A stretch of DNA of 64,000 nucleotides, taken from contig CP154954.1 of the NCBI GenBank assembly GCA_039621445.1, positions 2,914,001 to 2,978,000 of the forward strand, read 5' to 3'. Source of the DNA: Euglena gracilis. Its lineage: Eukaryota. Position 1 is the first letter of the stretch. Every line of letters starts with the position of its first letter. The translations under genes were made by a program, and so were the position numbers. Positions 9,079-64,000 of this stretch are shown piece by piece. The notes under the pieces were generated by a model that was not told the origin of the DNA, searched no databases, and saw nothing but the letters and a program-made list of their open reading frames with translations.

Positions 9079-9622
9079 GGTGTGTGACCTGAGGCAAGGC
9101 GCCGTTTCAAAAAGGGGGGGAATGTGACCAGTGACTGAACTGCACGTGCAACAACTGAATTCAGCACATTGAAATGCCTTCTAACCTACGGCAAGCAATC
9201 CGCGCAAATTATGACAAAAAATCATCCGACTTAGGCATTTTCAGGCAAAAAATGGAAAAAGTGTGAAACGTTCTGACGGGACGCACAAAATGGATTATTC
9301 TGGTCCGTAACAACGGGGGGTATGGATATGCTACGTTTTCGTAATCTTTCATGGCGTATCTGTGTCAAAAACTGCCGAACACAAACCGGGGGTGACACAT
9401 CACGCATTCGGGTCGCGAAACAGTTAACACACTGGCGGTTTACTGTTGGACATCCGTAGGCCTGCTTTTTTGGAAATCCAGAAGGTGTCTAGAGGGGAGT
9501 TGTCAACTTTTTTCTTTTGGCGAACATGCACCTGGTTATGGCGCATCGAATGATCCATAAAATAAAGTGTGGTGTGACTTGTATCAAAAGTTACTAAACC
9601 GTCGCCTCATCAGCAAATCCGC

Positions 9623-15028: not shown

Positions 15029-15216
<188 letters not shown>

Positions 15217-19445: not shown

Positions 19446-20029
19446 CAGGGCAGAACGGGAATCGGCCGAACAGCCAGGGTGGTGGGTGGGGGGGGGGTCG
19501 TTCCCCCCCACCTCTTCCCGTATTTCCAGGAGCACCAATTTTTGGACCCGAAAAAGATTTTCCGGCGCCGGGTGTTTTTTTGACTCATTTTGGGACCCAT
19601 ATAGGGGGTCCCCCCCCAAACCCCCCAAAACCCCATTTTTTCACACCTTCCAAAAATTCAACATTTTCTCAAAAATGTTGATTTTGAGAGGTTTTTGAAG
19701 CAAAAAATGCCTTCGAAAGTCCAAAAAAATTTCAACGAGAAAAAATGTCAGTAAAATTTGACTGTGCCAAAATTTGTCCGCTTTTTTTGACCTTCGTTTT
19801 TTTCACCCCCCCCTAAAAACAACCAATTTTTAACCCTGAAATTTTTGAGATTTTTTTTTGCGAAAAAAAATGTGGGTTTCCATCAAAAAATCATGTGTTT
19901 TGGGTTCATTTTTCAAAAAAATTTCAAAGATTTTCCCGGCCAATCCCCGTTTTCCTGAAATCGGTGAAAGTGCTGTGGTGGGTGGGGGTTTCGACCCCCC
20001 CCCCCACCAGGCCTTCCCGTTCTGCCCTG
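19446..20029 (+). mobile_element. hAT-type MITE (584 bp)
   Basis: 15-bp perfect TIR CAGGGCAGAACGGGA...TCCCGTTCTGCCCTG; 8-bp TSD GGCTGCGG/GGTTGCGG (7/8). Confidence 0.88.
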
Positions 20030-21049
20030 GGTTGCGGGAAGCAAGCGTCCCCCTCCTCTTCTAAAACACTTTCGGTGCTTGCCTGAAACTTCTTTTTGCA
20101 AAGAAATTCAGGTGTGTCTTTTTATGTTTCAGACCAGGGCTGCACGCCGGGTCCGAATGATCGCACCGTTGTTTCGTTGGTGTGGGTGTCCCCTCCATGA
20201 AACCAAAGGGGGTTTCTGGACCCCCCACACTCGTGCGTTGGCCACCCGCTTAGGGACGAAAGACGCCTTTTTGTTGGCAGGGAGTTGGATTCTGTGTCTT
20301 TCAGAGGGCAGCGTGGTGCCCAGCACTGCACCCAAGTCCCGACCAATCCAAACAAAGAGGACCTCTTCCCCCTCGTCGTTTCCCCAACTCCCCTTACGGC
20401 TTTCAGTCCTTTCCTCCATTCTGGACCTTGGGGGGCCCGATATCAGCAGGCTAACTCGAAGTTTACATGGTCCGAGCCCCAGGGGGTGCAACTTGCATGT
20501 GGACTTGGCTTTTCTGAATCGGTTGACTACCAATCTCCCCACCCCCAGCTTAAGTCCATAGCCGCCAAAGTGGTTGAAATTACGAAAAAGAGGCCAAAAA
20601 CATCCAAAATGGCCATATACCCCTTTCTTGTGGCCAGGGGGCCGAAAAAAAATGAGGGAATCCATTTCCACTGACCCCGGGTGGAAAAAAAAACAAGCCA
20701 TCTATTCACACCGAACCCCTCTCCTCCGCTGCCGTCCCTCAAACATTTCAGAGACAACCAGGGCTTTGGCGCCACACCAGCCACGGACAGTCTGCCGCGG
20801 CTCCGTCACGACGATTTAGTTTCTCCGAGGACTTTGGCGTGCTTGTCTGGATTCCTTTGGTACTGTCCACTTTCCGCAAACGGACGGGGGGTTTGGATGG
20901 CTTATCGAAATCTCTGTCATTTTAGGAATAGGGGTTAGAGTTGCAATTGTCGTTCAGAAGAGGGCCAAAGTTAAATTTGGCCAAATTGGCTCTAAATTTA
21001 GCTGAATTAGGCCTAATTTTTGTCGAATTTTAGTCTTAACGGGATGAAT

Positions 21050-26398: not shown

Positions 26399-26768
26399 CA
26401 GGGGGGGGGGAATGCAACTTGCATAACTTGCATTCCCATTTTTTGCATAATCAGGTTTTCCCGAAATTTGCATTTTTATGCTTTTTTTTTGCATTTTTTG
26501 CATAAAATATTTTGCCCTGGAAAAAAATTTTGTAGTTGGTTGGCATATGTTTGGATTTTTTTGCATTTTTTTGCGTTTTTTTGCATAAAATATTTTGCCC
26601 TGGAAATTTTTTTGATTTTAGGCACAAAGCTCTGTCATATTCCAGCCTTTTCTCAAGGTTTTCATGCAAGTTGCATTTTTTTGCATTTTTTTGCATTTTT
26701 TTTTGCATTTTTTTGCATTTTTTTTTGACTTGCATAATTTGCAGGGCCAAGTTGCATTTCCCCCCCTG
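26399..26768 (+). mobile_element. Non-autonomous MITE (370 bp) of the CGGBP-like hAT family
   Basis: TIR CAGGGGGGGG(G)AATGCAACTTG...CAAGTTGCATTTCCCCCCCTG and TTTTGCA subterminal repeats match the ends of 39378-41564; perfect 7-bp TSD GTATAAG (26392-26398, 26769-26775). Confidence 0.92.
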
Positions 26769-37897: not shown

Positions 37898-39789
37898 AAA
37901 GGCAATGCACAGGCACTGGGGTGGCAAATTGCAAATTTTGCATATGAATATGAGACAAGCCAACCCTGTGCTGCCACTGTGCCAACCCATGTGGTTCTGT
38001 CTCTCTTGCCTCTCCCCCACCAGTATTGGCTTTTTTTTTTGACCCATTAGCGCCCCGCCCTGTGCCACGCGTGGCCTGTCCACCGTGCCAGGACAGCCGG
38101 TCTTGCTGAGAACCCCAGCCACTCCTCGAATCCGCAGGGGAAATTTCCCTTTCCGAGGATTCTGGGCAGCAATGTTGGCTCCCTTCTGCGATTACTTCCC
38201 TTTGGCCTCTCCCCATCCGATGGACGGTGTGGGCCACACTTGTTATTTCACACCAACATAAAACAGGGCACCACTGTGTCGACACGGTCGTCAGGACACC
38301 GCAGCAAGGTCAGGCATTTAGTATCGGTAGTAGTAGGGCCTTGCGATACCTTGGGTTTTGTGTCCGTCGCAAAGTTGCTCATCAGAATTGTGCAAAATCA
38401 GCAGATTAGTTTTTTTTTTGGAGGAAAGGAGAAGGTGGATCGGTCGTCCACGCCACCAGGCAGATGCTGATAGTGTCCATGGAAAAATCAATGTGAGGTT
38501 GTTTCTGGGGACCTCCGCAACTCCTCGGGGACATTGACGCCCCCCCCCCAAATGAATTGTCAAAAATCTATTTCCGGCCCGACTGTATTGACCCTGAGTG
38601 CACCTCAGTCTTGGGGGGGGTTCCAGTGACCCAAACTTTCTCAGACACCATCACCTGCATCAAACCCTACAGGATACCCAGAGATCCCACCAAACAGGAC
38701 AGATTCTCCCTACTGGCTTTTCACGTCAGTTTTCTTTTTTTTTTGACAAAATGTTTCCTCCAAAAAGTCTGATGGACACCAATAACCCGAAATGCTGTAA
38801 TTTTTTGTTGTCCTCTGAAATAGAAGCCATTTGACACCAAATTACTTTTCCAAAGCGCATTGAATAGATCCATGGATGTTTTTTGGATACTGCCAAGGTG
38901 CCAAAAAAGATTGGCCCAGAAAGTTTACAGGGGGTCAGTCCAAACCCCATCCTCCCAAGGGGTAGGTGTCTAATCCATGCCAGTCACCTGGCCTGGGCAA
39001 TTGGGACGACGGTTTGTTGGCGTGGCTGGCCCCACATTATCTTCCCCTCGCCCTCGGCGGCACCCCAAAACCAAACCTCTCCCACCCCCCTCCCCTGGTG
39101 TCTGCTACAGCTGCCTGTGGCCTGCAAGGTGCTGCCTTCATGTTTGACCGACGATGACAGCACCAAAGCAGTGACATTGGCCAGGCGTCTTCGACGTTGG
39201 GCAGACAGTGTGGTGAGGCAGGCTTACTGAGCTTCAAAGTGAGTGGCCCTTTGTGCAGAATGTGGTGAGACCACGTACACCTCCAGGCGGATTGCCTCCC
39301 AAAAAACTGATTGAAACATTCACAATTTTGCACATTTATTGCTTATTATGGGTTGTTGTTGGAGATAGGTATTAATGCAGGGGGGGGGAAATGCAACTTG
39401 CATAATTTGCATTTTTTTGCATAATCGGCTTTTCCCGAAATTTGCATTTTTTTGCATTTTTTTGCATTTTTTTGCATAAAATATTTTGTCCTGGAAAATT
39501 TTTTTTTGTTGTTGGTCGCCATGGTCCGTGGTCCCTCTGCAGTTGCCTGGGGTCTTTGATACTTTCACCCTATTAAAAGGCAGCTTTGCAGAGGAGTGGA
39601 TGTTTTCCGAGCTTGTTTTTGTCATTTCAGCTTGCATCATGGCCGACACTCAAGTGGAAGCAATTCTGGAAGGAGGTTTGGTGGACGAGGGTGAAGTCCC
39701 CCCTGAAGAAGAAGAAGAAGAAGAAGAGGAAGATTCACGTCAAAAGAAGAGGAAGTTCAATTACGGAGCGAAGTCAACTCCAAGCTCCC

Positions 39790-39849
39790 GTACATATTCC
39801 GGCTCCAAAAAACGTGTGGAAAATTTGGGTGGAGCCAGAATATGCTGCT
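39790..39849 (+). other. Predicted intermediate/non-conventional intron (GT...CT, 60 nt)
   Basis: Stem CATATTCCGGCTCC (39793-39806) / GGAGCCAGAATATG (39831-39844); +4..+6 CAT pairs with -8..-6 ATG; removal gives TPSSRCKQF. Confidence 0.75.
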
Positions 39850-41113
39850 GTTGCAAGCAATTCCCATTTGGTATTTTTGAAGTCCGAGGTGAGTCAATGT
39901 GGTGTGTGGCTTGCCAGAAGCCCATTGACCACCGCCGGAAGAGTGTTGCAAATCAACACGTGAAGCAAGCTGGCCATGTTGAATTGGCAAAGAAGAAGGC
40001 AACAAGACCAAAAGCTCCCTATGTATTTTTTTTTGTGTCTGACGACCGCTTCCTCACTTTCAGATTGCCACCCCAACGGCGGAGGTACAAGATGAAGCCT
40101 CGTCCACACAGAATCTGAATCCAAAAGTGCCTGAACGTGCAAAGGTGCGTTTTCCACATTCCATTCCAGGTAGATAATTTGTTTTTTTTTTAACAGGTTC
40201 AAGCTGATTTGAAAAAGTTGCTTACAGCAAGAACGGAAATCAACGATGTTCACGATGACCTTTGTGCTGCATTCCTAGCAGCAGGTATACTCTCCATGTT
40301 CGTAAATGTCCTGGAATGCCTCCTTTTTCTGGTAGGCATACCTTTGGAGAAGATCGCGCACCCCAGCCTGAGGGGTTTCTTTGGAAAGGCAACGAAGTTT
40401 TCAGGGTGTTATCCCAAGGACCAGAAGGACATGAAGCCTTCGGTGGAATGCGTCTACAAGGTGTTATGTTGCCCTCTCCCCCTTGTACTCTTTGACTTGT
40501 CTTTATTGGAAGTTGGTTGCATTGTTTGTGTTTCGGTTTCCGATATAAATTTTCAGTTCATGATCATTACTGTTTCCCGCACAGAGGCACGTTGCGGAGT
40601 TGCGGCGTCGTCTGGCGAACCAGGACGTGGCCGTCAGCTTCGATGAGACGACGGACAGCCGCGGACAGTCGGTGCTGCACATGATTGTCGCTTGCTGTCA
40701 AAGCTTGCAAGGGAAGGGGCCGTTTTCTCGCCACGAGTGGAGGCTTTGCTAGGAAGACTGAAAGATGGAACACCTCTGCGATCCACTTTGTATTTGGCTG
40801 CAAAAAGAGGGGCAAGGTATTGTGACACCGTCATGGACAGGTGGCCAAAGCAATGGCAATTTTATCGAGAAATTCGAATTCTCAATCCTCGGAATCTTCC
40901 GGACATGTCCCAAGATCCTGCACAATACCCCATGCTTTCGTTTCCTATGAATGATGCAGAATTTCAAGGGGATTGGCAGCGGTATTGCCGCGTGGAGCAA
41001 GTGTTCCCCTCAGATTCCGTTTCGCTTATGCAGTATTGGGCGAAGCACAGTGGTGCCCTCGCCCAAGTTGCCAAGTTTTTACTGACCATTCCCACCACCT
41101 CTGCTGACGTTGA

Positions 41114-41179
41114 AAGCACACACTTCTGCATGTGCGGAATCCAAATGTTGTGCTATAGAATGCAGAAGGGTGTGCCGCC
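41114..41179 (+). other. Predicted euglenid-type non-conventional intron (AA...CC, 66 nt)
   Basis: Stem GCACACACTTCTGCAT (41116-41131) / ATGCAGAAGGGTGTGC (41160-41175); +4..+6 CAC pairs with -8..-6 GTG; removal restores the hAT motif SADVE|RSFS. Confidence 0.88.
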
Positions 41180-41888
41180 ACGTTCGTTCAGCCTTGCTGG
41201 GTGTGTTGATACCAAATTGCGTTCCACGTTGTGTAATGAAACGCGACGTGCCGCCGCTTTGTTGATGTTCAATGGTGACCTTGAGGGACGATTTGCGTAG
41301 ATTAAACAAATCATGTTGATTTTGAAAGCTTCAGTGCTTGTTGTTGTCTCCTTGGGGGTCTTCTTTGTGAATCATTGACGGGCACGCCGGCATTGTCACA
41401 TGTTTACAGATTTAGGCAGCAAAATTCTGGTGTATTCCAGCCTTTTTTCAACAGTTTTTTTGCAAGTTGCATTTTTTTGCATTTTTTGCATTTTTTTTTG
41501 CATTTTTTTGCATTTTTTTGACTTGCATAATTTGAAGGGCCCAGTTGCATTTTTTCCCCCCCTGATTAATGTTTGGGTGTTGGTTCGGGTTTGGGTTACC
41601 CCCCCCCCAATGTCCACCCTTGATTTTTTTATTTGGGTGGGATCCAGGTATTTTCGAATGTTGAACCCCAGGGGGGAGAGTGGATGCTTCATCTAAGGTT
41701 GTCGCAAAAAAAAACAGGTGGTTATTTGCATTTGCAAACTTGACGTCCCCATACGTCTCTGACCTCAAAGTGCAATCTTGCCCGGGGCCATTTGAATTTG
41801 ACCCTATTTTTGGATATGACCTCCCGAGAATAGTGAATGTAAGTTAGGCACCCCAACATTGGCCACCCAATCCTCGTTTTCAAATGTG

Positions 41889-42267
41889 CAGGGGGGGAAC
41901 GCGTTTTTTTTTGCATTTTTTTGTTTGAGTTTGGCAAAATTTGTGTTTTTTTTGCTTTTTTTTCGTTTATGCTGGAATTTTTTTGGACAATGAAAAATTC
42001 CTCATTTTGCCCCCAATTTTCCCAATTTTGCAATTTTTTGCCAACAAATTGCATATCTTCATGCGAAATGAAAAAGTTGCCCTGACGGAGCTGAAATTTA
42101 AGCCCCTCAGGCAGAAATTGCATTTCGGAGGGGGAGAGCCGTATTCCTGGAGCTCTGCAAAGGATTTTGCATGCAATTATCGTTTTTTTTGCCTTTTTTT
42201 CACGTTTATTTTTCATTTATTTGCATCGCGTTTTTTGAGGGTCCATGTTGCGGTTATCCCCTCCCTG
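41889..42267 (+). mobile_element. hAT-type MITE (379 bp); internally deleted copy at 48447-48610
   Basis: Ends CAGGGGGGGAA...TCCCCTCCCTG; TSD CAAATGTG/CAATTGTG. Confidence 0.7.
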
Positions 42268-45600: not shown

Positions 45601-48600
45601 TTAATTCTTCGGATATGAAATATTTGATTCTGGACAATGTATTGTAATGAATGGACGATGTATTCTCTGATGAAACTCTGAACAATGTATTCTGAAAAGT
45701 GGTGTCACCAGAATTTCGGCGAAAATCAAAATTCTTTTCCAGATGTTCACCCAAAGAAACATCAGCCACCCGTTCTGAAGGCTTTCCCCAACTCTTCAGC
45801 AATTATGAAAAATGTTTGTGATGTTCAACTTCTACGTTCGTGCGCTGTTCTTTTTTGCCTCCATGCAGGCGGACCAGCATGCACCCTACAGTTGGCATGC
45901 TGGGGTGGGCAGGACCACCACTGTACGCTGCTCAAGCGGAAGCATTGCTTGCTTCAATCAGAAACGATTCCCCCAAATGTCCTCAGAATTAAGTCACCAG
46001 TTTTTTTGGAGGAAGCTAATTCTTTTTCGCACCGACCTACCCCCATGCTTTTTTTAAGTTTTCTGGTGCTGTGCTTTATTTGTAATTGGAAAAGTAATTT
46101 TTCCTTTTGGTGATGATGTGAAACGAAGAGAATCGTTTTTCAACGGCGTAAAAGCACAGGGATCCTTCCATTTCCTGAAAAGGAAATTAAATGAAATTCA
46201 TGGAGGATCACGGAAAAATGGCGCGAGGCCATTTTTACAGAATTCACAAAAATTCACGGATATTCACGGATGAGGCAGAGGGATATGATTTGATATGGAA
46301 TATGAATTTTGACTTTTTTTTAAAGTTCAAATTCAAAGTTTAAATTCACGGAAAATCACGGAAAATCACGGATACATTTTGGCCTCGATCAGCACGGAAA
46401 CCAGAGAAACCCTGAAAGGCAATGCACAGGCACTGGGGTGGCAAATTGCAAATTTTGCATATGAATATGAGGCAAGCCAACCCTGTGCTGCCACTGTGCC
46501 AACCCATGTGGTTCTGTCTCTCTTGCCCCCCCCCCCCCCCAGCATTGGCTTTTTTTTTGACCCATTAGCGCCCCGCCCTGTGCCACGCGTGGTCTGTCCA
46601 CCGTGCCAGACTTCCGGTCTTGCTGAAAACCCCAGCCACTCCTCGAATTCACAGGGGAAATTTCCCTTTCCGAGGATTCTGGGCAGCAATGTTGGCTCCC
46701 TTCTGCGATTACTTGCCTTTGGCCTCTCCCCATCCGATGGACAGTGTGGGCCACACTTGTTATTTCACACCAACATAAAACAGGGGACCACTGTGTCGAC
46801 ACGGTAGTCAGGCCACCGCAGCAAGGTCAGACATTAGTATCGGTAGCAGTAGGTCCTTGCGATACCTTGGGTTTGTGTCTGTCGCAAAGTTGAAGGGGGG
46901 GATCAAAAGCATCTCATCAGAATTGTGCAAAATCAGCAGGTCAGTTTTTTGGAGGAGAGGAGAAGGTGGATCGATCGTCCACGCCACCAGGCAGATGCTG
47001 CTAGTGTCTGTGGAAATCAATGTGAGGTTGTTTCTGGGGACCTCCGCAACTCCTCGGGGACATCGACCCCCTCCGAAATGAATTGTCTGAAACCTCTTTC
47101 CGGCCGGACTGTATTGACCCTGAGTGCACCTCAGTCTGGGGGGAGGTTCCAGTGACCCAAACAGGATTCTTTCTCAGACACCATCACCTGCATCAAATCC
47201 CACAGGATAACCAGAGATCCTACCAAACAGGACAGATTCTCCCTACTGGCTTTTCACAGCAATTTTCTTTGACAAAATGTTTCCTCCAAAAAGTCTGATG
47301 GACACCAATAACCCGAATTGCTATAATTTTTTGTTGTCCTCTGAATAGAAGCCATTTGACACCAAATTGTTTTTCCAAAGCGCATTGAATAGATCCATGA
47401 ATGTTTTTTGGATACTGCCAAGGTGCCAAAAAAGATTGGTCCAGACATTTTACAGGGGGTCAGTCCAAACCCCATCCTCTCAAGGGGGAGGTGGGTGAAT
47501 CCATGCCAGTCACCTGGCCTGGGCAACTGGGACGACGGTTTGTTGGCGTGGCTGGCCCCACATTACCTTCCCCTCGGTGGCACCCCCAAAACCAAACCTC
47601 TCCTCCCCCTCCCTGGTGTCCGCTACAGCTGCCTGTGGCCTGCAAAGTGCTGCCTTCTTGTTTGACCGATGAAGACAGCACGGCATTGGCCAGCCGTCTT
47701 CGACGTTGGGCAGATAGTGTGGTGAGGCAGGCTGACTGAGTGGCCTTTTGTGCGGAATGTGGTAAGACGAGGTACACCTCCAGGCGGATTGCCTCCCAAA
47801 AAACTGATTGAAACATTCACAATTTTGCACATTTATTGCTTATTATGGGTTGTTGTTGGAGATAGGTATTTATATTTGGGTGTTGGTTCGGGTTTGGGTT
47901 ACCCCCCCCCCAATGTCCACCCTTGATTTTTTATTTGGGTGGGATCCAGGTATTTTCGAATGTTGAACCCCAGGGGGGAGAGTGGATGCTTCAGGGGACT
48001 TCCCTCCCCGATCTTTAAAGAACGCGCGACATGACTCCCTCACCCGTACTCACGTTGCAAAATTTTGGTGTATCTCACAAATTTCCAGAAGTTTTTCTGT
48101 CGAGTTTGCCAAATTTTGGCATGCACAACCAGTTATGAGACGTTCACGTGTTAATTGTGAATAAGAATTCGGTTGAAAGCATTTGGGGCAGGGATTTAAA
48201 TACAGAAAAGGTCTTCATTTTCTGCATCTAAGGTTGTCGCAAAAAAAAAAACAGGGTTGTCCGGAGAATTGTCAATTGGTTATTTGCATTTGCAAATTTG
48301 ACGTCCCTATACGTCTCTGACCTCAAAGTGCAATCTTGCCCGGGGCCATTTGAATTTGACCCTATTTTTGGATATGACCCCCCGAGAATAGTGAATGTAA
48401 GTTAGGCGCCCCAACGTTGGCCACCCAATCCTCGTTTTCAAATGTGCAGGGGGGGAAGGCGTTTTGCATTTCGGGGGGAGCTCCGTAGCTCCGGAGCTCT
48501 GCAAAAATTTTTACATGCAATTATCGTTTTTTTTTGCATTTTTTTACGTTTATTTTTCATTTATTTGCATCGCGTTTTTTGAGGGTCCATGTTGCGTTTC

Positions 48601-49111: not shown

Positions 49112-49426
49112 CAGAATGCGTCCCTCACGAAATAACGCTTCCCTTTGTGTATTCCAGGGGACTCTCATTTTTTTTTCTATCAGGGATTTCTTAAAGACTG
49201 GTGGCAGGGGGTCTCCCCTCCCCCACCCCACCCCACCCCGGCGAAGGGGGTCTGGCAGACCCACTTTTTGGTCAATATTTGGGGTCAAACTTTTTCAGAA
49301 AATAGGTAAAAAGTAGATGAGAACCCCGCCTTCAGCAGGGTGTTCACTCAGCACGACCCCCCCCAAACGTACACATAGCATGATTCATTATGCAACACCA
49401 TACATTTTTTTGCACAATCAGAACAC

Positions 49427-50596
<1,170 letters not shown>

Positions 50597-50952
50597 TTTT
50601 CATTGCGACCACCGGGAACAATTTTTTTTGCAGCCTGCTGCGACTCTGAAGTATTTTTGTTTCCAGCGAGCCAGCTAGTGCCAATTCAGTTCGACCCACC
50701 CTCTGGGGGCCCTTAAGTGCAGGCTTGGCTATTCAGGTGTTTATATTTCCATATCTGCTCTTTTTTTCACATACGAGAACTCAAGCTGAATAAAAATTAC
50801 CAGTATATTTCAAATAAACAAATCAGTGTATAAATAGCCCATAATTTGAGATATAATGGATAATGCACAGGATTGGGGCAGCGGACACCTGTGCAGCCCG
50901 GACGAGCAGCATGTGCACACTGCAGGTTGCTCCCTGAGCTGGTGTGTATTAG

Positions 50953-50998: not shown

Positions 50999-52999
50999 TG
51001 TTCTGGATGCCAGGTGGCTTTGTGTAGCTGTTCCACCACACTGGAATGACCAGCCCAAGGCACCTCTCGGCCCACACTCTGTGGCGGCAGATCTTCTGGC
51101 TTTCTGAAAAGCTTAAGAGTGATGAAAAGGAGGATACCCACCCATCAATCGTCCAGACTTGAAATTTTTGGTGTCTGGAACGTTGTTTTGACAGAAAGGG
51201 GACTGTCATAACCCCAGAGATGATTGTTCAGCTGGATCTTTGGCACATATATCTCCCCTCTGAATGCGAATCCCTCCCGACCAAGCACGTTTGATGATGC
51301 AGCATCTCCCAAAGCTTGGGTACTGTTGCCGGCGGCAGGGTGATGAACGGAATTTTTTTCTTCGATAATTTCTTCGAAAACGTTCGATAATTTAAGCCAT
51401 TTTCGCCACTTTTGGCCGTTTTTGTCCATTTTTGGCTATTTTTGGCCTTTGTCGTCCTTTTTTTTTTGGCCCATTTTCGGCCATTTTTGGGGGCATTTTT
51501 GGACATTTTTGGTCGTTTTTTTTGGCTGATTTTATATATATTTGGCCCTTTGGGTGCTTTTTGGCCATTTTGGGCAGATTTTGTCTACTTTTGGCTGCTT
51601 ATGGTTGATCCATAAAATGGATCTACATATTTGTCCCTAAAATGGCCAAAATGGGATAAAAGTGGCCAAAGCAAAAAGTGGCCAAAAAATGGACCAAAAG
51701 TGGCCAAAGCGCTAATAGTGGCCAAAAGCAATCAAAAAATGGCCGAAAGAGGCCCTGAATATTTTCCAGAGAAGTCTGGTTAAAATATAAAAAGGGGGAA
51801 ACACCCAGATAAAACTGGGCATGTTTTCAAAAGTAAAAAAAAGTAGAAATACCCAGATAAAATTGGGCATGGCTTTCGTCACCCAGGGTTTCTCATTATT
51901 TGATCCTAGTAAATCCTCGAGATCGTCCGAGTAAACAGAGTTTTATTGTGCAATTGAAGCTATCCAGGAAAATTTGCAAGCTGCAACAGGTTGATTTTTC
52001 CCCCAAAAAGAAAACCAAAAATTCACACACAAGGCACAAAAGCAACAGCTTTTTTCGTTTCCATCCAATTTGTCCCGGCCGCTTTTCCGAATGTTTCCTT
52101 GCAATTTACCTCCGTGTTCTTGTTCGTTTTGAGTTTCGTGTTGCCATTAGGTTTTCTTTAACAACCCTTGGGGAGGGGGGGGGTGTTGGGCTATGGTGCA
52201 CCATGACAGGAAACCCCCTCGGGGGCTTTCGTTTGGGTATTGATACTCCCAAGAAAATTGCCATTGCAGCCAATGCTCCCTTGTGAATGGCCATTATCGG
52301 GCACGCCATGGTCAGGCAAGGGGTGTTCATTTTCGACCTCCCGTGCCCCCCGTGCCAGTATTTGGGGTGGGTAATGCTAATGGGAAGCACTCCGGGGTGA
52401 AGCTTTCTGAAAAGATGCCTAGTTGTCACAACCTGGATTCTGTCAATGATATAAATTATGCAATTTGCATTTTCTCTTCACCCCCGAAGCTTGCATTTTC
52501 CCTTATTTTGGCTTTTTTTTAAAAAAAATACAAGTTCCATGGTTCCAAAAATGCTAGAAATCGTGAAGACCTTGTTGTAGACCTTGCCCCCTCCCCGCCA
52601 CCATTCGCTTACCCTGAAAGTAGCTACCAGGGTGATTTATGGCTTGACACGTGTGCGCATGTGTGTGTGCGTGTGCGATCATTTGTGGCAACTCAGCCTT
52701 GCGCCTCTGAGCCCCTGGTTGCACCAGCGAAAGGTCTTTTCACATTGCGTATGCCGCACCGGTAGAACGGGGAGCCTTGCCCTCGCCTATTTGCTATACA
52801 CGTCCGCCACCAGCTGCCCTCTGGCTGATCTGGGGCACCGTTTCCCTGGCAACGACACCACACATATTTTTAAAGCGACTTGCAAAAAGGCTGTTTTTTT
52901 TTCAAATCCCCAGGAGCCGAACACAAGTTCAATGTTTGAACGACTTCAAGACTTCAAAGGTTCCTGTTTATCAAAAATTCAAAAACGGTGAAATTCATG

Positions 53000-53024
53000 A
53001 CACACACACACACACACACACACA

Positions 53025-53116
<92 letters not shown>

Positions 53117-53125
53117 CACACGCAC
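53000..53125. repeat. (CA)n/(GCAC)n microsatellite
   Basis: Direct reading. Confidence 0.97.
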
Positions 53126-53530
53126 CCTGTTGTCACCTTTTTCAGTTTGGTGGAGTGATGGAAAGTGAGAGGTGCATATTTCAGTGCACTGGGCCGAGAA
53201 GACATATGCAAAGCGACATATTGCATCCTGGGACCGACATGTTAGCCATTTTGGTGTTCTTTGGACTCGGGGGGGGGGGCAGCAATCGAATTTCAGCCTC
53301 TAGGAACCGTCTTGTGGGTCGTCATAGAGATTTGTCCTCCATTTTTGGATTTGCCATATTGTCAGCAAGTTGTTTATTGGGGGTAGATAAACAATTTCTT
53401 TCCCCATGGATAAACAATTCTTTCCCCATTAACGTGAATATTTAGATTAAAAGAGGCACAAGGAGCCAAAGTCCAAATTGAATCACCTATTTCGCCAAGG
53501 AAAACGTAAAACCGGGGGGTTTTTTGGAAG

Positions 53531-53587
53531 CACGAACAATCACGAACAATCACGAACAATCACGAACAATCACGAACAATCACGAAC
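53531..53587. repeat. 10-bp minisatellite (CACGAACAAT)n
   Basis: Five full units plus a partial unit. Confidence 0.95.
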
Positions 53588-53625
53588 CGGATTTCATACT
53601 TCCTAGCACGAACCGGTGGTAAACC

Positions 53626-53798
<173 letters not shown>

Positions 53799-56431
53799 AT
53801 GCTTTTTGCGGCCTTGGCAGCATCGAGACCACATCAACACAGACTTTGCATGAAATGGCTGACAAGACCATCGGTCAGTCTAGCCAAATTTTCTTCTTGC
53901 TGTCCCACCCGGGCGCTTGGCCCAGGCCATGAAGGTATGGCCAGGGGGCCAACCTTAGGGGGGCCAAGTTTGCATGTGAAGAATTTTGGCGGCCATGTGC
54001 AAAAGGCCATCCCTACAGGGGCCAAGTTTGCATGTGAGGAGGAGGGTGGCCAAACGCCACCCTGGGGGTACTGTGCATCCGGCACATTTTCTTCAAAGCA
54101 ATTGGGTGGGTGTCTCAACTAGCAGATATCCCCTCCAGTCAAGCAACCTTCAGTGCCGAAGCAATCCAACGGTGTTTTCAAAAGGACAACAGCCTGCAAG
54201 CAACGCCATCCCCAGGCTCGATTTTCCTCGAGGTCCCTGGGCTTTCACCGTGGCTGCGAAGAAGAAGTCGTGGATGGTTTAAAAAAGGTGTCACGAAACT
54301 GCTTGATCCTGATGTCAACCTTGATGCCAACAAAGTCATACCATTCCTCACTGTCTTACCAGGGGTGATTACAGATTAACTGATTGCTTTTTGGGCTCTA
54401 CACCCCCCAGGGGAGGCCAGATGACCGAAAGTGGCACCGTTGGCCCAACGAAACATTTTCCCAATAAACACCCCAATCTTGGACCACAAATGCAAATATA
54501 CTGGAAGAATTGGCACCCCCACTAGCCTTAGTGGGGGGGGGGTGGGCGGGTGTGGGGTTGGGTTGGGTTGGGATAACCAAAAAATTCGGGTGCATTTTCG
54601 GAATCACTGTGAAATGTGCTTCCTTAAGTGGGGGTAGTAATTAGTGGGACGTCCTACAGGAATTATCTAGTGGGACAGGCAAAAAAATAATTTTGTTCAA
54701 AATCTCCAATGGTCCTGCACAAGTGCAGGATCATTCTAAAATCCCTCACCAGGAACCAAAAACAATTTTCCGGCGCTTCTCGCCGGGAAAATGAAATTTT
54801 CGCCGTAGGTTTTGACCATTTTTTTTCAAAAAGTGCGCTTTTTGGGGCCTTTTTCAAGGCCCGTTTTTTTTTCCGGTGCAAAGAGCTTTACAATTTTTTT
54901 GCTCAGGGGGAGGGGGGTCCAACTCGCACACCCTCCAGGGGGTCCTACACCCCTGTCCCCGCTCATTTTTTACCCTTCCTTTCCCCCACGGTGACATTTG
55001 TGGCTTGTGTTCTGCAGTGCCCGGCAGTTGCAGGCGCAGGCCAAGCCCCGGGACCATTCTGTTGGCGTTCCCATCTGATGAATCAAGGGCCCCAATTTTT
55101 CGCGCTCTTGTTTTTATAGCTCCTTGGGAGCTATGACGCTTCCACCCTCTATAGCTCGGAAGCTCTGCAAGCTTTGCGAGTCACGTGTCGCTTGTCCTCT
55201 GCGTTGCGTGTGTAATAGCTTTGGCTCTCGCGTCTGCGGGCCAAGACTCGATCGCCCGCCCCACAGGTTCCTTGCATGGCTTGGCTGGAAATCCTTGGGT
55301 GTTGGTACCCCCCCCCAGGCGCTCCCCCCCCGGGCGCTTGCCCCCCCCCCCTCCTCCTTACATGCAAACTTGACCTTCCTAAAACTTCAGCCTTAATTTG
55401 CAACTTTGCGCCCAATTTTAGGGCGTTTTGGCTTGTTTTACGCATGGTTGGTACCCTGGCCTAACGTTCAATCGGGTCCAGGGCGCCTGGGGGGGGGCAA
55501 CCACCTTCGCTGGTGCAGTGTGATGCAGTAATTGTGGTGTCTAACTTAGACGGCTGGGAATGCACTTTTCATTTTTGGTGGTTTTTTGCGCACCTGCGCA
55601 TTCTTTTGTGTCCAGTTGTGTTGCCATCACTTGACGGGGCGGCGCACCCGTCAGCTGAAGCCCCTTGTACCAAATTGTGTACCATTACTTTCGACCCCCG
55701 TGTTTTTTTACTGGGTAAACCAACTTTTTTCGTTTTGAAATTGATGATTTAGCACCTCCGCCGACTGGGGGAAACCTCCCGTCTGCCGAAGTAGGTGCGA
55801 CACAAAACGCTGTTTCACGAGGACGAACCCTGGTCAGGTGGTAAGAGTTTCGGTAGGCTGTGCACAAATTGGCGAAAAATATTAAAATTTTGCGGCCAAG
55901 GTTGCAAGTTGTGGCTGCAGGCCAACTTTAACAAGGCCAAGTTAAAAAAGGAAAAGAAAGGACAAGTGGTGTAACGGCCCGCAGTGCCACTGGCAGTGCC
56001 ACCGCAATTCACCCCACACCTGCGTGGCACCTCCCTCCAGGGGACAGATGGGTTTTCGAGAACCAAAGCAACCAGGGGGGTGGGGGCGGGGGAGGTGCAC
56101 CATGGGCCAGTCTGTCGTGTCCCGACCGAAGGCCAGACCGGAACTTTTTTGAAAGACTTCCAGCCGAGTTTGTGTTTGTGGGAGGGTGGACCCCCCCTCC
56201 CCAACTGCCAGGGTGGTTGAGCAATTTTTTTGTGGATCCGCCCGCCAGCTGGGGAATGATTTGCGAGCTAGGGGTTTCCTGCTTTTGATAACGGCTTTCC
56301 TGGTAAAGGTTGTACTGAGCTCGAATCTCCCTGGACCCCAGTTCATGATTTTCATCCCCAGTTGTGGAAATTTTGGAAGTTCTCCACCTTATCCCGTCCA
56401 CGCCATGTTGTTGACACTCACCCCTTTCCCT

Positions 56432-57446: not shown

Positions 57447-57950
57447 TTTTTATGTAGCCAGGAGGAGAATAACGGGAGAAAGCGTCCTCACAGAATGCAT
57501 TGTGCTTGCTCATGGGGTCCTCCGCAATTTGCATTGATGTCCCATTCCTGACTCACCCACAAATAGAAGAACAGGTACGCTCGTGGTGTACCGACGATGG
57601 GGGGTGCATTTTTATGTGGACACTGCGCTTGCAGCGACCCTGTGCTTCTTAAAAGGAAGGTTATGCCCCGGAGGGGGGGGACATGGCTGGGGCGATGTGT
57701 TTGGCAGGGGTAATTGAAGCATTAAGGCAGGGCCGGGAGGCATTAATCCTGCAGAATTTGCATAATTTTTGCAATAATTTTAACAACAACAACAATAATT
57801 TGTAAAAAAAATTTGCATATAATTTGCATAATAATTTTTTAGGGGACAACAAGAAAAGGGCTGGAAAGCATTTCAGAAGATTGCTGTCTGCCAATGACCC
57901 ACAGGGAACTCCCCAGCCCTTTTTTGCATTTTCGGATTTTTCGCACAATG

Positions 57951-57974
57951 CATATATTTATTATAATTATATAA

Positions 57975-58005
<31 letters not shown>

Positions 58006-58106
58006 ATGTATATATATTATATGTATATGTATATATATATACATACATATACATATACATACATATATATATATTATATATATACATACATATACACACA
58101 CACACC

Positions 58107-58165
<59 letters not shown>

Positions 58166-58186
58166 ATATATATATCTCTATATATC

Positions 58187-58255
<69 letters not shown>
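57951..58255. repeat. (TA)n-rich compound microsatellite
   Basis: Direct reading. Confidence 0.97.
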
Positions 58256-58257
<2 letters not shown>

Positions 58258-61200
58258 CGACCAAACAGTGGCCAAAAGGATTTTATGCCGCATTTCTCAC
58301 CCGCACAAATCCGTATAATTGCCGCATAATCCGAATTATCCCCCCCCCCCGCATAATTCCGACAATTATTGCCTTGCCGACAATGCATTAAGGATAACTG
58401 ACATGCAGTCTGTCCCCTGCACTCATTTCATGTTTGGGAGGCCCTGGGCTTTCAGCTCCATTTCAGCATCTTGGACCTCCCACATCTGCAGCCCTACCCC
58501 AGACCACTTCGCCGCCTGTGGTTGCTATCCACTGGTTCCTATATCCGGCGGCCTCCCCTTCCCTCTGTACATCGCCTGTACATGGACCAGAGATTTTTTT
58601 TCCTTCAGTTTGGTGACCGGGGTGGGGGTTCCAGACCCCCCCCCTTAAAAAAATTCCTGCTCCGACAAGCAGTGTGCTGGTCCACTCAGCCCACTTACGA
58701 CCGCCTTTGTACTTTTTTTGCAGGCGATGACACAAGATTGCGAAAGGTGCCAAAGTGAAAAGGCCAAAGGTGCTGAAAAAGCTATTTGGGTGGAGTTGTT
58801 GGAGTGTCTGTGGCCTTTTGCGGTCAGTTTCAATAGCTTTGGATCCCCTCCACACTCTTGGCCGCCATATTCCCTACATGCAAAGTTGGCCCAAAAGTTG
58901 GCCTTCGGCCGTGACGTGCAATCTTGTCACCCCGTTAGGCTCTTTTGGCTTATTTATCATGGCCTAAATTCTTAACACTCGACTTTTCCCCAAAATTGCC
59001 CTCGGGGCCGTACCTTCAATCGTGGCCCGTGCCAAGTGCCTAGGAAAGGATGGATGGATGGGTTCCAACTCCATTTGAGTTCCCTTTGTTTGCTTAATCA
59101 ACGATCCCAAAAATTTAGAATCTTTTAACGATTCCTTAATTCTGCAAAAATGAATTTGGCAAAGGAAATTTTATTTTTTGTTTTCTTTTTATTTATTTAT
59201 TTTTATCTTGTTATATTTTATTTCACTTAATTTTTTTTTGCCAATTGCCTTTCATTCATTTTCGAATTTCTTTTAGGCAACAAATTGCATTTGTCGAAGT
59301 CAGAGCGCAAAAAAGTTTTGTGGCACTCATACCTGTCGAATTCCCATTCCTTGTGTTTTTTTGTGGTTTATTTGTTTATTTGCGTTCTGTTGCATTTGTT
59401 GAGACTCCCTGTTGAATCTCAACCCCTCCACAGTTATGAACCACACACTTACAGTGTCCACGTATGGTCTACATCGCTCAGCTTGGGGGGATGCACCCTC
59501 TCCTTGGTCATTGATCGCATGTTTGGCAGACTTCGGTCAGTTTCAATGGCAGCCAATGGCAGTCAATTAGCTTCAATGCCCTGTAGCAGGTGTACGCACA
59601 GAACGCACACAGTTACCAGAGGCCTTTTTTTCCTTCAAATTGGTGCCTGGTGCTGGAAGGGGGTTTTTTTATCCTGTTTTTTTGGGACAAAAAAGCCCGA
59701 ATTTTCGACCCATCATCGAAAACCAACTCACAGAGGGGGTCGCCGAAGGGAAGCCCTCCCGCTCCCCCAGGCCCGGGTTATACCCCCCCCCCCGGAAGAA
59801 AAATGAAAGCCGCCGGGGACGATTTTTTCGGCCGCAAACCACCCAAAACTGATTTTTTTGTCTTTTTTTTGAGACCGAGACCAGTATCAAAAATGTCATT
59901 TTGACCAAATTTGCCGAAAATTTCGGGGTCATTTTGGGGGGTCCAAAACCATCTTCACTTGCTTTTCTGGCACAACACATTCGTTTTTTTTCTTTTTTAG
60001 CTTTCCAGCCAACACAAGATGATGGAAATTTTTTGAAATCCCCCCCCCCCTGTACGAAGAAAGGTACGCAGGAAAGGTCAGTCGCACCAAAAAGGACACC
60101 AAATCAAAATGCATAGGGGTTCATGTTCTTGCCAAAGATGAACAACATCTCACCAAATCAAGCCAGAAAAGATTCTGTTCTCTTTTTCCTGAGAAAATAG
60201 CTTGATGGAAGCGCACAAGAAGCACAAAAAAAATGAAATAAAAGTGAGACGACGTCAAGGAAAATATCTGAGGATTTTTTGGAACCCATTGAGTCTGCCT
60301 TCACCCACCCACTACTCTAAGTCCAGGTTTGGTTGGTGGGAGGGGGGGTTACAAGTGAGGTGAGTTTACAAGTGGGGGGGGTTAGAGGGGAAGGGAAATT
60401 GTTCGTGTTTGGTTCACCCTCCTTCGCATGAATGGCAGCAGAAGCTCTTTCAAAGCAGAGCTTTTATTTGTTGACTTTTTGGCCGTCTGTCTTTTTTTTT
60501 TGCGGCGGCCGCCTCCGCCAAAGCCAAAAGCCGGTTCTCGCCGTCCTCTCCAAACCCCAATGCATATATCAAGGAAGTTTATTACTATTTCAAACCGAGC
60601 TTGCTTTGGTGGGAGCGGTCGGGGAGAGCGGCCTGCTCGCTTCTGCTTTGGGGCATTCTTTGGTTTCCAGTTTAACCAGCCCCTTTTTTATTGACCCCCG
60701 GGTCCCTCAGCAATCCTCTGACTCATTTCACTTAAACCCCCCCCAATTAGAAGCCCCCCCCCCCCCCAAATAACAACCCCCCCCAAATAGAAGCCCCCCC
60801 CCCCTCAGGTTTCCCGCCAAAAATCCAAATAACATTTCATTTAGGACTGTGATGGGTCACACAACTCAAAACAAATCAGCAGGACAGAACCTTTGGGCAC
60901 GGTGGCCCAACAGTGCCAAAAACAATGGATCCCTGCGACCACTACTAAAGGCTGCAGGTCAGAGGGTTTGCATGACCCTCAGGGAAAAGACTTTATTTTG
61001 CCTTTGGAATTTTTTTTCCAGTCTGGCTACATCAAAGAGGGCGAATGGTGTGCGTTTGTCCATCCAGCTGGAACCGGCCACCGAAAATCCAGCAAAGGCT
61101 GGTTTGTGGGTTTCCAGCTAAAATTTAGAGGTATAACGGCCAAAATCCTCAAAATACCATTTTTGCCCCCCTTTCCTACAAAGATTTTTGCTGTTTCAAA

Positions 61201-62711
61201 GTTCGATGCCTGGCTCAGAAGCTTTTCTTCCCCTCGGGGGAGAAAACCCACTTTTGGTTAACTCTATTTTTGGGTCAAACCTCCCTGAACCCTTCACACC
61301 TGAGCCAAGAACCCCTGAGTGTGAATTTCTTTTGGCAAAGAAGCAAATTTTTCCAAAGTCTTTTACAGCAGAATGTTGACAATCTGTTTTTTTCTTCTTC
61401 CAGAAGTCAGTGTATGTCAGTGCATGCCTTTTTGCAGTTGTGTGTACTTGTGTGCGGTTTTATACAGTGATTTTTTTTTTGCCTGCCCGTGTGGATATTT
61501 TGCACCCCCCCCCTGGGTGTCCCCCCACTTTTCCATTTTTCCCCAAGGCACACATATTTAGGCCAATGTTTTCATGCAAACTTTAGGAATAGCTGGGGGC
61601 CCTCACCCCCCCCCATTCTGGCTTGGAGGTACCTGACCACCCCCCACCCATCAGGTGTTTCGGTGTGGCCCTGTTGATGTTGATATGGCGGCTTGTCCAC
61701 AAGCCCAGAGAGGGGACAGTTGGCCCAAAACCCCAACGGCTTCCACCCGCAACACGGCCACTCCCTGACCCACTCCTTGCCTCCCAAGTGGATGGCGAGT
61801 GGATGTCCGTCATGCGCAGGCATCCCGATGCGCTGCAGCCCCTGCAATGTGGTCTGCGACAGAACTATGTGTGCGTGGGCTTTGTTGTCAGATTGTGTGT
61901 TTATTGCGGACCGAGCTGGGAGGAGAACCAGCGACCCGAGCTTCCTGAAAACAGCTGGATTCTTTTCCACCGACAGCAATTTTGAGAGACAGACCAGTTT
62001 TGAGAGGGGGAATTAAAATGGCAGTCAAAACAAATTGATGGTGAAGATATCACGGCAGCTGTTTTTTGTTGCACCCACCAATGGGTTCAAGCACCCCCCC
62101 AGCCCCAGGCGCTTGGCTCCACTCCTCCTTGCATGCGCACCTGTCCCCCTAAAGTTGGGCTTCAGCCTTCCCTTGCCACCTTGGCCGCCCATTTTTTAAG
62201 GTTTTTGGCCCAGTTTGTGCATGGCCTGCCGAAATTCTGAACATGCAAACTTGGCCCCCTAAGTTTGGCCCTCCCGGCCTTGCCATCACAGTTGACGGCA
62301 AGGCCAGGGTTCCAACCTTCGGTACAAGCGCAGCCAAGTCGGGGGCCAAGCGCCCAGTATGCAATTTGCCCCCTTTCAATCGTGGCTTGGGCAAATCCCC
62401 CGGCTGGGGGGGGGGTGGCCGATTTGGGCCACAGAAATGAACCAAGATATTGGCCCGGAGGAGGTCAGGCAGATGGAAGGGGGTCCCGGACCTCCCAAGT
62501 AAAGTCATCGATGACCATTCACTGGGGAGGGGTACCCTCGGCCGGTGAACCTCACCAGTTTGAGGCCCAGGGGTGAAATTTTGATGTGCCTCTTCTGTTG
62601 CGTATATTTTTTTTTGTTCTTTTTCCACACCCCCTGCTCAGCCTGCAGTCCAATTTTTGGCTGGTCTAGAGGTGACCCCACGTGGACTGGCACGGGGACT
62701 TGCACCGGCAC
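58256..62711 (+). repeat. Dispersed segmental duplication, copy 2 (partner 152-4000)
   Basis: Colinear with 152-4000; carries extra segments ~59925-60467 and ~60731-60839. Confidence 0.95.
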
Positions 62712-64000
62712 AGTGTGGAAGCTGCCCCTGCAGCTCGCTTCGCTCGGAGCCCCCCCTCTTGATGACCTTCCCCCTAGACTCCACCGCCACGCTCCGTGGG
62801 TCTGCGATCGAGGAGATTGCCGCCCTTGTCGTCTTCCTCCCCCTGGCGCCCGCCCCGCCTGCCCGGTGGTCTCTCAGCCGGAGGGCCCGTAACCGGCGGC
62901 AGCACGCACTACACGGAAACCCCCCGGCTGAGCAGCGGCGACCCCCACGCGGCGGCCGTCAGCCGGAGCTCAACCAGCGGCAGCTTCAAGAGTTACAGGA
63001 GGCGAGGACGCTGCGCGCTGCGGGATGGACAATACCGGCTTCGGTGGAGGACACGTCCCTCGTGCGGGTGTACGACACCCGCCTCTCGGTGGACTGGTTG
63101 CGCGACGTGGCCGCGGAGGTACGGCTCATCGACGACCCGGACACGGTCGTGGTGGTGGGGGGCGATTTTGCCTCCCAGGCAGACATCTGTGATGCATCAG
63201 CGCTCGCACCGGCGGTACCGCGGAGGTGGGGCCAGCGCCCCTCCCACATCATCATCCCGCCGCGGGAGCACCTCGGCGTCTGGATCCAGCGGCTGCGCAG
63301 TCAGCTCGATTTGGAGGACCCTTCCACCGTGTACAGCATCGCCGCGGTGGTGGACCGGGACAGCTGTCCCCAGGAGCTCAACGCCATGGCCCTGCGTCGG
63401 CTCCTTCCCGCGGCTGGCCCGCTCTTCGATGACCGGCGGGTATCCGTGGAGGCGGTGGCGGTAGCCGAGCGGCCACCCCTCTTGCGCGTGCCCGCCTCTG
63501 AACGTCGGCTGCCCCCGGAGGAGTGGGAGAGGGCTTTCCTCGCCCGCAACAAGGTCCTCATGCTGCTGCATGTCCGGCGCCTGCCTCAGGCCATTCCGGC
63601 CACGGCTGATCCACTGATGCCAACGGGAAGGTGGATCCGCGGCTCGTTACCGGATCCGGAGCCCAACCACCTCGAGCTCCTCCGAGTGGAATTTGAGCTG
63701 CCCCCGGCGACGCGGCAACGCAACGCGGAGCGGGAGCGGCGGCGCGCGCGCTGTCGAAGGTGGCGGGCGCGGTGGGGGTGGTCTTCGGCCCCGCTCACCA
63801 GCTGCGGGGCATCCAGCCCACCCATGGCGGAGTACTGGCCCTGCTGGCCGTACCGCGGCCGGAGGCGCTGCGCTGGTTGAAGGGAAGCGGCTGTGGAGGC
63901 CTCTTCGTGAGACCCTTCTGGACCCGCGATACGTGTCTTTCACTTCAGCGGCAGCAGTTCAATCTGTTGTACCTCAAGAACAGGCGTGCGGAGGCTGCTC
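62712..64000 (+). mobile_element. 5' end of a GC-rich inserted element, probably a non-LTR retrotransposon
   Basis: Homology to copy 1 stops abruptly after GCACCGGCAC (62711), with an abrupt rise in GC/CpG and a long ORF starting 50 nt later. No RT or endonuclease domain within the window. Confidence 0.65.
62762..64000 (+). CDS. Putative LINE ORF1 / polyprotein N-terminus (partial; one frameshift near 63735)
   Basis: MTFPLDS...RRARNRRQHALHGNPP...RVEFELPPATRQRNAER, continuing in another frame as AARALSKVAG...WLKGSGCGGLFVRPFWTRDT...RRAEAA, open to the window end; strong GC3 bias. Confidence 0.65.

Follow-up and report, generated by a model that had tools for sequence, protein, structure and literature searches.

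Euglenid nonconventional introns are the subject of Milanowski et al. (2014 and 2016), and the signals behind their removal have been dissected in knock-in experiments (Nomura et al. 2025, PMC12501133). The knock-in work yielded the pattern 5'-N3 CDG ... CH'G N5-6 | purine, together with pairing behind the two trinucleotides, in which the 5' spacer is strictly 3 nt and the 3' spacer 5 or 6 nt (PMC12501133). Any single substitution in CAG or CTG abolished splicing, and the CDG/CHG signature covers 61.2% of the annotated nonconventional introns (PMC12501133); constructs with the third pair swapped are not among the experiments in the main text of that paper. The E. gracilis consensus is CCAGG at +3..+7 and CCTG at -9..-6, most nonconventional introns of this species give -10 to -2 kcal/mol in a test of terminal pairing, and their lengths run from 30-36 nt for the shortest, with about 1% below 60 nt, to a mean of about 520-540 nt (PMC11170887). 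Euglenid nonconventional introns are reported to be excised as full-length circular RNA (review PMC11282704). In E. agilis, 71.8% of introns are nonconventional.

Among hAT transposons the target-site duplication usually measures 8 bp. For the transposase of one of them, Hermes, we take E572 to be the catalytic DDE glutamate and the distance between D180 and E572 to be 392 residues.

In this study, a 66-nt insert within a hAT transposase sequence was analysed in a stretch of 64,000 nt of Euglena gracilis DNA, which is referred to as the window. The insert is most probably (we would put it at about 0.7) a nonconventional intron of the euglenid type, inherited by one hAT clade and splitting, in phase 2, the codon of the catalytic-position glutamate. 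We favour this reading because the geometry fits, because inserts of variable length that cannot be aligned with each other occupy one and the same site, because the exons around them are open and conserved, and because a transcript of the clade is contiguous at this site. The nonconventional splicing machinery would then excise exactly 41114-41179, and excision would restore ...SADVE-RSFSLAG...

Sequence, boundaries and fold of the insert

The insert and its two stem arms are:

41114-41179, + strand: candidate nonconventional intron, 66 nt (41115-41180 is equivalent), from the fold, the register and an HMM deletion scan
41116-41131, + strand: 5' stem arm (+3..+18), from inverted-repeat detection and the register
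41160-41175, + strand: 3' stem arm (-20..-5), from inverted-repeat detection and the register

The frame 40647-41300 reads ...IPTTSADVE, then 22 additional residues, then RSFSLAG...NGDLEGRFA and a stop codon, with the glutamate codon split in phase 2 (GA | A). The 22-residue stretch is absent from all 20 relatives in one alignment and from all 11 in another. The ends of the insert are AA...CC (AG...CA if slid by 1 nt), and GT-AG, GC-AG and AT-AC are all excluded. In a deletion scan scored with an HMM made from 20 relatives that are contiguous between glutamate and arginine (hereafter E|R), removal of 41114-41179 (41115-41180 gives the same product) ranked first of 1084 in-frame, stop-free deletions, with 211.9 bits vs 191.2 for the uncut frame. 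Since protein homology singles out this deletion among 1084, the boundaries are fixed except for the 1-nt slide.

The same scan bears on a conventional explanation, namely a cryptic intron of 57 nt running from GT at 41109 to AG at 41164-41165. Such a GT...AG pair is indeed present and its removal keeps the frame, but the product drops V-E of the motif and retains five foreign residues; the deletion lay within the scanned ranges and is absent from the 12 best, of which 41114-41179 is the first. Its donor, GTTGAA, is moreover unlike those of the introns upstream (GTATTT, GTGCGT, GTATAC and GTGTTA), and we consider a cryptic conventional intron very improbable.

Each arm of the stem has 16 nt; the two are 94% complementary, pair at 15 of 16 positions and enclose a loop region of 28 nt. 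Position +k pairs with -(k+2) at +3..+8 and +10..+18, leaving a single mismatch at +9, and in this register CAC at +4..+6 is paired with GTG at -8..-6. The minimum free energy of the insert RNA is -27.3 kcal/mol, compared with -16.09 +/- 2.78 in dinucleotide shuffles (z = -4.03; 0/200 as good), and the hairpin persists when folded inside 146 nt of context. An earlier note on this DNA, made from the letters of the sequence, had described 22 extra codons between E and R of the hAT motif, ends other than GT/AG with a 16-position stem carrying one mismatch, and the boundaries GA|aagCAC...GTGccgcc|A with +4..+6 opposite -8..-6. All of this was borne out at 41114-41179, with 15 pairs in the stem and the boundaries ambiguous by the 1-nt slide, and the predicted fold withstood the comparison with shuffled sequences. 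A search of the window for the stem-arm sequence with up to 3 mismatches gave 3 hits, two of them the arms themselves, and found no copy elsewhere; Rfam gave no match anywhere in the window at gathering thresholds.

The pentamer ACGTT, which contains the self-complementary ACGT, occurs at 41107-41111, leaving 2 nt between it and the insert, and at 41180-41184, where it adjoins the insert. Both ACGT copies pair with each other in the centroid fold and lengthen the helix into both exons. They resemble the short direct repeats reported at most Euglena intron borders (PMC12501133). ACGTT was considered as a target duplication of the insert and rejected, as loss of one repeat together with the insert deletes the conserved glutamate.

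Comparison with the rules for nonconventional introns

The insert agrees with the structural side of the broad definition of the class, having borders that are neither GT/GC-AG nor AT-AC and a stable RNA structure that joins both ends. In the narrower code, the 5' spacer is 3 nt (AAG), after which +4 pairs with -6, and the 3' spacer is 5 nt (CCGCC), with a pyrimidine at the intron end and a purine, A at 41180, as the first base of the exon. Pairing behind the trinucleotides extends to +18:-20 with the one mismatch at +9. The terminal fold (first 10 nt, seven U and last 10 nt) gave -9.3 kcal/mol, which is within the published E. gracilis range, and in a sample of 5000 segments of 66 nt drawn at random from the window, just 1.5% reached -9 kcal/mol or lower. 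The length of 66 nt lies near the short end for nonconventional introns of E. gracilis. The departure from the code is in the trinucleotides: +4..+6 is CAC and not CDG, with C as the third base, and -8..-6 is GTG and not CH'G, with G as the first base, the middle T being complementary to A at +5. The earlier note had assigned the insert the geometry of euglenid nonconventional introns, and this stands for the spacers, the pairing and the purine at the exon start and fails for CAC/GTG, which is not CDG/CHG.

The insert thus shares with euglenid nonconventional introns (i) ends other than GT/AG, (ii) a terminal helix, (iii) N3/N5 spacers, (iv) a 3' exon that begins with a purine, (v) C:G and A:T as the first two motif pairs, (vi) further pairing and (vii) a gene that also holds GT-AG introns. 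Unlike the introns that conform to the code, it has C:G instead of G:C as the third pair, it resides in a transposon and not in a host gene, and its excision is putative; we infer both the excision and its tolerance of CAC/GTG in place of CAG/CTG. One alternative that does conform to the code was tried, with an inner CTG (41126-41128) and CAG (41163-41165) and N3/N6 spacers; it removes 41123-41171 (49 nt), breaks the frame and leaves the motif unrestored, and it was dropped.

The failure of CAC/GTG against the CDG/CHG code is what would be expected if the 66 nt were a dead insertion, that is a foldback or MITE-like palindrome that entered an ancestral element, from which a non-autonomous subfamily descends, and that is kept in RNA. 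On this view, intact relatives supplied in trans the activity that spread the copies, and the intron-like geometry is coincidental. We regard this as unlikely, if worth weighing at each step below. The inverted repeat starts at +3 and ends at -5, short of the insert ends, and its arms have no flanking target duplication, nor is the arm sequence repeated elsewhere in the window; all of this speaks against a palindrome that inserted itself. The inverted repeat ends 2 nt (5') and 4 nt (3') inside the insert, an asymmetry that the intron code demands and that would be unexpected of an insertion with terminal inverted repeats and a target duplication.

A further comparison is with transposon-derived introns (introners and MITE-like elements), as they are described in PMC11282704 and PMC12501133. 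The insert is like these in having inverted repeats within coding sequence, a 1-nt slide and the ACGTT repeats. It is unlike them in being an intron inside a transposon and not a transposon turned intron, and 66-nt copies are absent from the rest of the window. The analysis yielded no evidence of the insert moving on its own.

The host element

The following features were assigned to the element that carries the insert:

39378-41564, + strand: hAT-type DNA transposon, 2187 bp, internally deleted, non-autonomous, from flank comparison, its ends, a C-terminal hAT domain and a match to Hermes
39371-39377, no strand: left target-site duplication ATTAATG, with identical 7 nt after the right end
39378-39398, + strand: left terminal inverted repeat (CAG, G run, AAATGCAACT), matched to the reverse-complemented right end
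41543-41564, - strand: right terminal inverted repeat, from the end alignment
39414-39476, + strand: subterminal TTTTTGCA repeats, 4 copies, from motif positions
41457-41512, + strand: subterminal TTTTTGCA repeats, 5 copies in unchanged orientation, from motif positions
39639-40022, + strand: putative exon 1 from conceptual splicing, with start codon, acidic tract and a Cys/His zinc-finger-like segment (weak zf-C2H2_2, E 0.014)
40023-40063, + strand: putative GT-AG intron, 41 nt, from conceptual splicing
40145-40196, + strand: putative GT-AG intron, 52 nt, from conceptual splicing
40285-40335, + strand: putative GT-AG intron, 51 nt, from conceptual splicing
40461-40584, + strand: putative GT-AG intron, 124 nt, from conceptual splicing
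40585-40700, + strand: end of the N-terminal half (...VSFDETTD...VLHMIVA), probable strand of the first catalytic Asp (weak DUF659, E 0.0074)
40701-41113, + strand: C-terminal hAT region up to the insert, its last two bases being the GA that opens the glutamate codon; frame different from that of the N-terminal half
41180-41300, + strand: final coding piece, which completes the glutamate codon with its third base and continues through RSFSLAG...NGDLEGRFA to the stop, from the alignment of relatives

Judged by its ends, flanks and protein, 39378-41564 is a bounded DNA transposon of the hAT superfamily. The flanks (39002-39376 and 41565-41907) match 47528-48465, where the 2.2 kb are lacking, and at the paralogous unoccupied-like site (about 47858-47885) a single 7-nt stretch stands between the matching flanks. 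The element ends in CAG...CTG, with inverted repeats of 21-22 nt, and the target duplication is either 7 nt and perfect or 8 nt with one mismatch. One copy of the element is present in the window.

The C-terminal region provides the superfamily assignment. On the uninterrupted open reading frame, the Pfam hAT-dimerisation match is weak (E 0.0011; 19.2 bits with a cutoff of 21.4) and covers residues 118-172, stopping within the insert (residues 157-178); the same domain, PF05699, is annotated on two relatives, P0078 and P0080. A PDB search with the single sequence gave a chance match only (E 1.5), and Hermes was reached by the family profile alone, at E 1.5e-6 to 6e-6, with the E before RSFS aligned to residue 572 (8edg_A, full-length chain). 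This agrees with the earlier note, which placed the insert inside a hAT element and in the codon of its catalytic glutamate, here the residue aligned with E572 of Hermes. Upstream of the insert, relatives align with the frame 40647-41300 from about residue 20 to the glutamate (residue 156), and the final coding piece is 51-72% identical to 14 relatives over 39 residues.

Conceptual removal of the four GT-AG introns gives one frame of 281 codons, from the ATG at 39639 to ...VSFDETTD...VLHMIVA. The frame changes right after VLHMIVA, and a deletion breakpoint probably lies at about 40690-40715. From the putative first Asp to the Glu there are at most about 157 codons in the element, and the DDE core is incomplete: the copy has neither a second catalytic Asp nor an insertion domain. 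Because the frame breaks after VLHMIVA and the Asp-Glu distance is far below that of Hermes, the element is regarded as internally deleted and non-autonomous. Its treatment as a transposase gene in the earlier note cannot be kept for this copy, which is frame-broken and not working; as a consequence, the insert is here a relic that is carried along and may already decay freely. A broken deletion derivative is also what would be expected of the dead insertion outlined above.

With hAT transposons (Hermes, Ac, hobo) the element shares the C-terminal dimerisation region, inverted ends (CAG...CTG) with subterminal repeats inside them and a short target duplication, and with deletion derivatives (such as Ds relative to Ac) the missing middle of the transposase. 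It differs from hAT elements in its duplication (7 nt and perfect, or 8 nt with one mismatch), in the absence of the second Asp and the insertion domain, and in a Glu codon split by a non-canonical insert.

The element sits within another repeat, of which a second, unoccupied-like copy lies 8 kb downstream (87-98% identity). Its outer approximately 150 nt (39378-39520 and 41420-41564) have a word depth of about 14,000-20,000 in sequencing run X1 (14,665-20,201 in the left subterminal repeat region) and above 2 million in run X2, while the depth of the interior is only about 10-25 in X1 and about 380-3000 in X2. Many contigs link both element ends, omitting about 2 kb, and 41411-41564 matches 26617-26768 at 88%. 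The ends seem to be common to a very abundant short (MITE-like) family or to a simple repeat.

Interruption at one site in one clade

With a cutoff of E <= 0.001, an exhaustive HMMER search gave 72 relatives, and names are attached only to the E. gracilis transcripts EG_transcript_12786, 17274 and 26019 and to one Eutreptiella MMETSP transcript. Among 80 database relatives, whose alignment rows were read by eye, 23 lack the motif region and 44 are contiguous at E|R. Several others depart from the alignment at that very junction: (i) in P0001, P0003, P0004, P0073 and P0074 unrelated residues follow the E and a stop codon comes within 9-17 codons; (ii) in P0036, P0040 and P0042 homology starts exactly at R; (iii) P0079 reads through an unrelated insert of 50 residues (150 nt); and (iv) P0018 has an insert of 125 nt, after which the 3' exon is picked up in the +1 frame, a reading compatible with 32 of 37 positions (13 for the next-best offset; median 8). 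P0006 shows a minor local deviation at the junction. P0050, which runs from E into unrelated residues with a stop after 29 codons, was dropped as an interrupted copy, because in the tree its neighbour is a contiguous relative, away from the clade described below, and it has more the look of a frameshifted copy.

In a maximum-likelihood tree built from the 110 residues upstream of E (29 rows; P0029 and proteins that were too short or lacked the motif were left out), one clade with support 98/97 unites the window sequence with P0018, P0003, P0079, P0004, P0074, P0001 and P0078. The seven members of this clade that derive from contigs, the window sequence included, are all interrupted exactly at E|R, by 66, 125 and 150 nt where a length was measurable. 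The interrupted database proteins come from ENA/Logan contigs of 736-1132 nt, which may be DNA or RNA assemblies. The remaining member, P0078 (E. gracilis EG_transcript_17274), is both the sole contiguous member and the sole transcript of the clade. Other clades are contiguous at E|R on large genomic contigs (P0046, 815 kb; P0012, 186 kb; P0006, 85 kb), and for this reason a contiguous transcript alone is no proof of splicing. A search for a near-identical contig-derived partner of P0078 found none, its best other match being 47% identical. A protein search for full-length relatives likewise found none, the longest clade member having 222 residues, and no related loci were found in metagenome, viral or prokaryote genome contigs.

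The inserts of the clade cannot be aligned with each other, differ in length and in some cases contain stops, and the flanking frames are open, with about 50-60% protein identity. A 3' exon that stays open and conserved behind such differing, stop-bearing inserts argues that it is still translated in frame. Back-translation of the insert termini of P0018 and P0079 placed the -(k+2) register best of 11 tried, with 4 certain pairs each and 0 (P0018) and 1 (P0079) impossible pairs; the base at +6 is T in both inserts, again off CDG. With a third of the bases undefined by back-translation, this apparently shared register is suggestive only.

The same relatives bear on a protein-level explanation, in which the 22 codons are translated and tolerated as a loop beside the catalytic glutamate. 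The 22 codons are in frame and open here and the 50-codon insert of P0079 is open as well, but the openness of 22 codons weighs little, as its chance would be about 0.35. The residues of the inserts are not conserved between them, five relatives run into a stop within 9-17 codons, the 125 nt of P0018 are not divisible by three, and more than half of the database relatives (44/80) do without any insertion at E|R; we give a translated loop hardly any credence. The earlier note had named two observations that would speak against an intron. The first, a conserved 22-aa insertion in homologous transposases, was found in no homologue. As to the second, transcripts that keep the insert, the three proteins derived from E. 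gracilis transcripts (P0078, P0027 and P0015) are contiguous at E|R; they are 44-50% identical to the window protein and are accordingly not transcripts of the window copy or of its close kin, and they answer this point only in part.

The earlier note had further proposed that activity of the transposon family would depend on nonconventional splicing. This was overstated: one clade is interrupted and others are contiguous on genomic contigs of 85-815 kb, and since the interruption is confined to one clade, the family as a whole is independent of splicing of the insert. Dependence would hold for the interrupted clade only, and only if it has intact members, of which none was found. The further proposal of the note, that the element could spread such introns, is speculative. 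The absence of the insert from other clades can also be counted in favour of an insertion without function. On the other side stand the open and conserved frames that flank inserts of 66, 125 and 150 nt in the clade, stop-bearing and unalignable as these are, and the precise contiguity of the clade's single transcript.

Sequencing reads and close copies

Runs X1, X2 and X15 behave as DNA, with contigs that are unbroken across the GT-AG introns. X1 and X15 contigs are also unbroken through the insert, X2 contigs cover sites within it, and the DNA-like contigs show no dip in depth there. An insert-free DNA form is not among the joints listed for these three runs. In every X1 and X2 contig 41128 is changed from G to T, with the loss of one G:C pair of the stem, and a 93%-like paralogue in X15 carries five uncompensated stem changes (41124, 41128, 41160, 41168 and 41172). 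Compensatory changes, for which the earlier note had proposed to test other genomic copies, are lacking in these nearest DNA copies, whose changes are uncompensated. The nearest copies give no sign of selection on the stem, as is expected of dead deletion derivatives, and this counts against conservation at that level; it is also a point for the view that the 66 nt are a functionless palindrome.

For RNA, some 5% of the raw reads of run X21 were analysed. These number 8 at 41081, 2 at 41124-41135 (inside the insert), 0 at the variant places 41153-41176 and 3-5 at 41192-41216, and depth is 5.21 and 4.71 in the flanking bins vs 1.74 in the bin with most of the insert, which, on the basis of some 8 reads, is a weak hint of an intron. 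Most X21 reads have their first mate on the minus strand, which corresponds to sense RNA in most stranded libraries. The joint 41113>41180 is absent among the 15 joints listed of 96, with about 8 X21 RNA reads near the site. No junction read among about 8 RNA reads, 2 of which enter the insert, is a pattern that a dead insertion retained in RNA would produce; the X21 reads are also compatible with splicing plus some unspliced RNA and are too thin to decide.

Significance of the putative intron

Nonconventional introns are the majority class in Euglena, and one of them within a Euglena gene is expected, so that the surprise at this level is modest. In the literature searched, neither hAT elements of Euglena nor transposase genes with nonconventional introns are described. 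If the intron reading holds, one hAT clade makes its catalytic glutamate motif only via splicing that is specific to its host. Through a transposon family, a single intron site becomes available in numerous diverged copies, here with three lengths and an altered third pair; if spliced, these would form a natural mutant series for the published knock-in assay and would show whether the CDG/CHG rule is one of sequence or of pairing.

A bolder reading, which we hold to be quite doubtful, is that the clade has a minimal, self-contained intron of 66 nt that is spliced without CAG/CTG, that the machinery reads the helix register and the spacer lengths and not the base of the third pair, and that, the ends of the element being shared with a very abundant repeat family, introns borne by such transposons could carry spliceable hairpin cassettes to new places in the genome. 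If this were true, the +6:-8 pairs C:G, T:? and T:A among the inserts of 66, 125 and 150 nt would be a natural compensatory series.

Other features of the window

Several further tracts were observed in the window. At 49384-50732 there is about 1.3 kb of trinucleotide-type low complexity, open in several frames, which reads as poly-His, poly-Asn, poly-Thr, poly-Pro, poly-Val, poly-Gly, poly-Cys or poly-Trp depending on the frame. Microsatellite-like tracts at 52711-54122 and 57806-58318 have frames composed of TH and HART repeats and of IY repeats. On the + strand, 9561-10937 and 62585-63880 are long open frames rich in G+C (458 and 431 residues), and these two could be parts of host genes.
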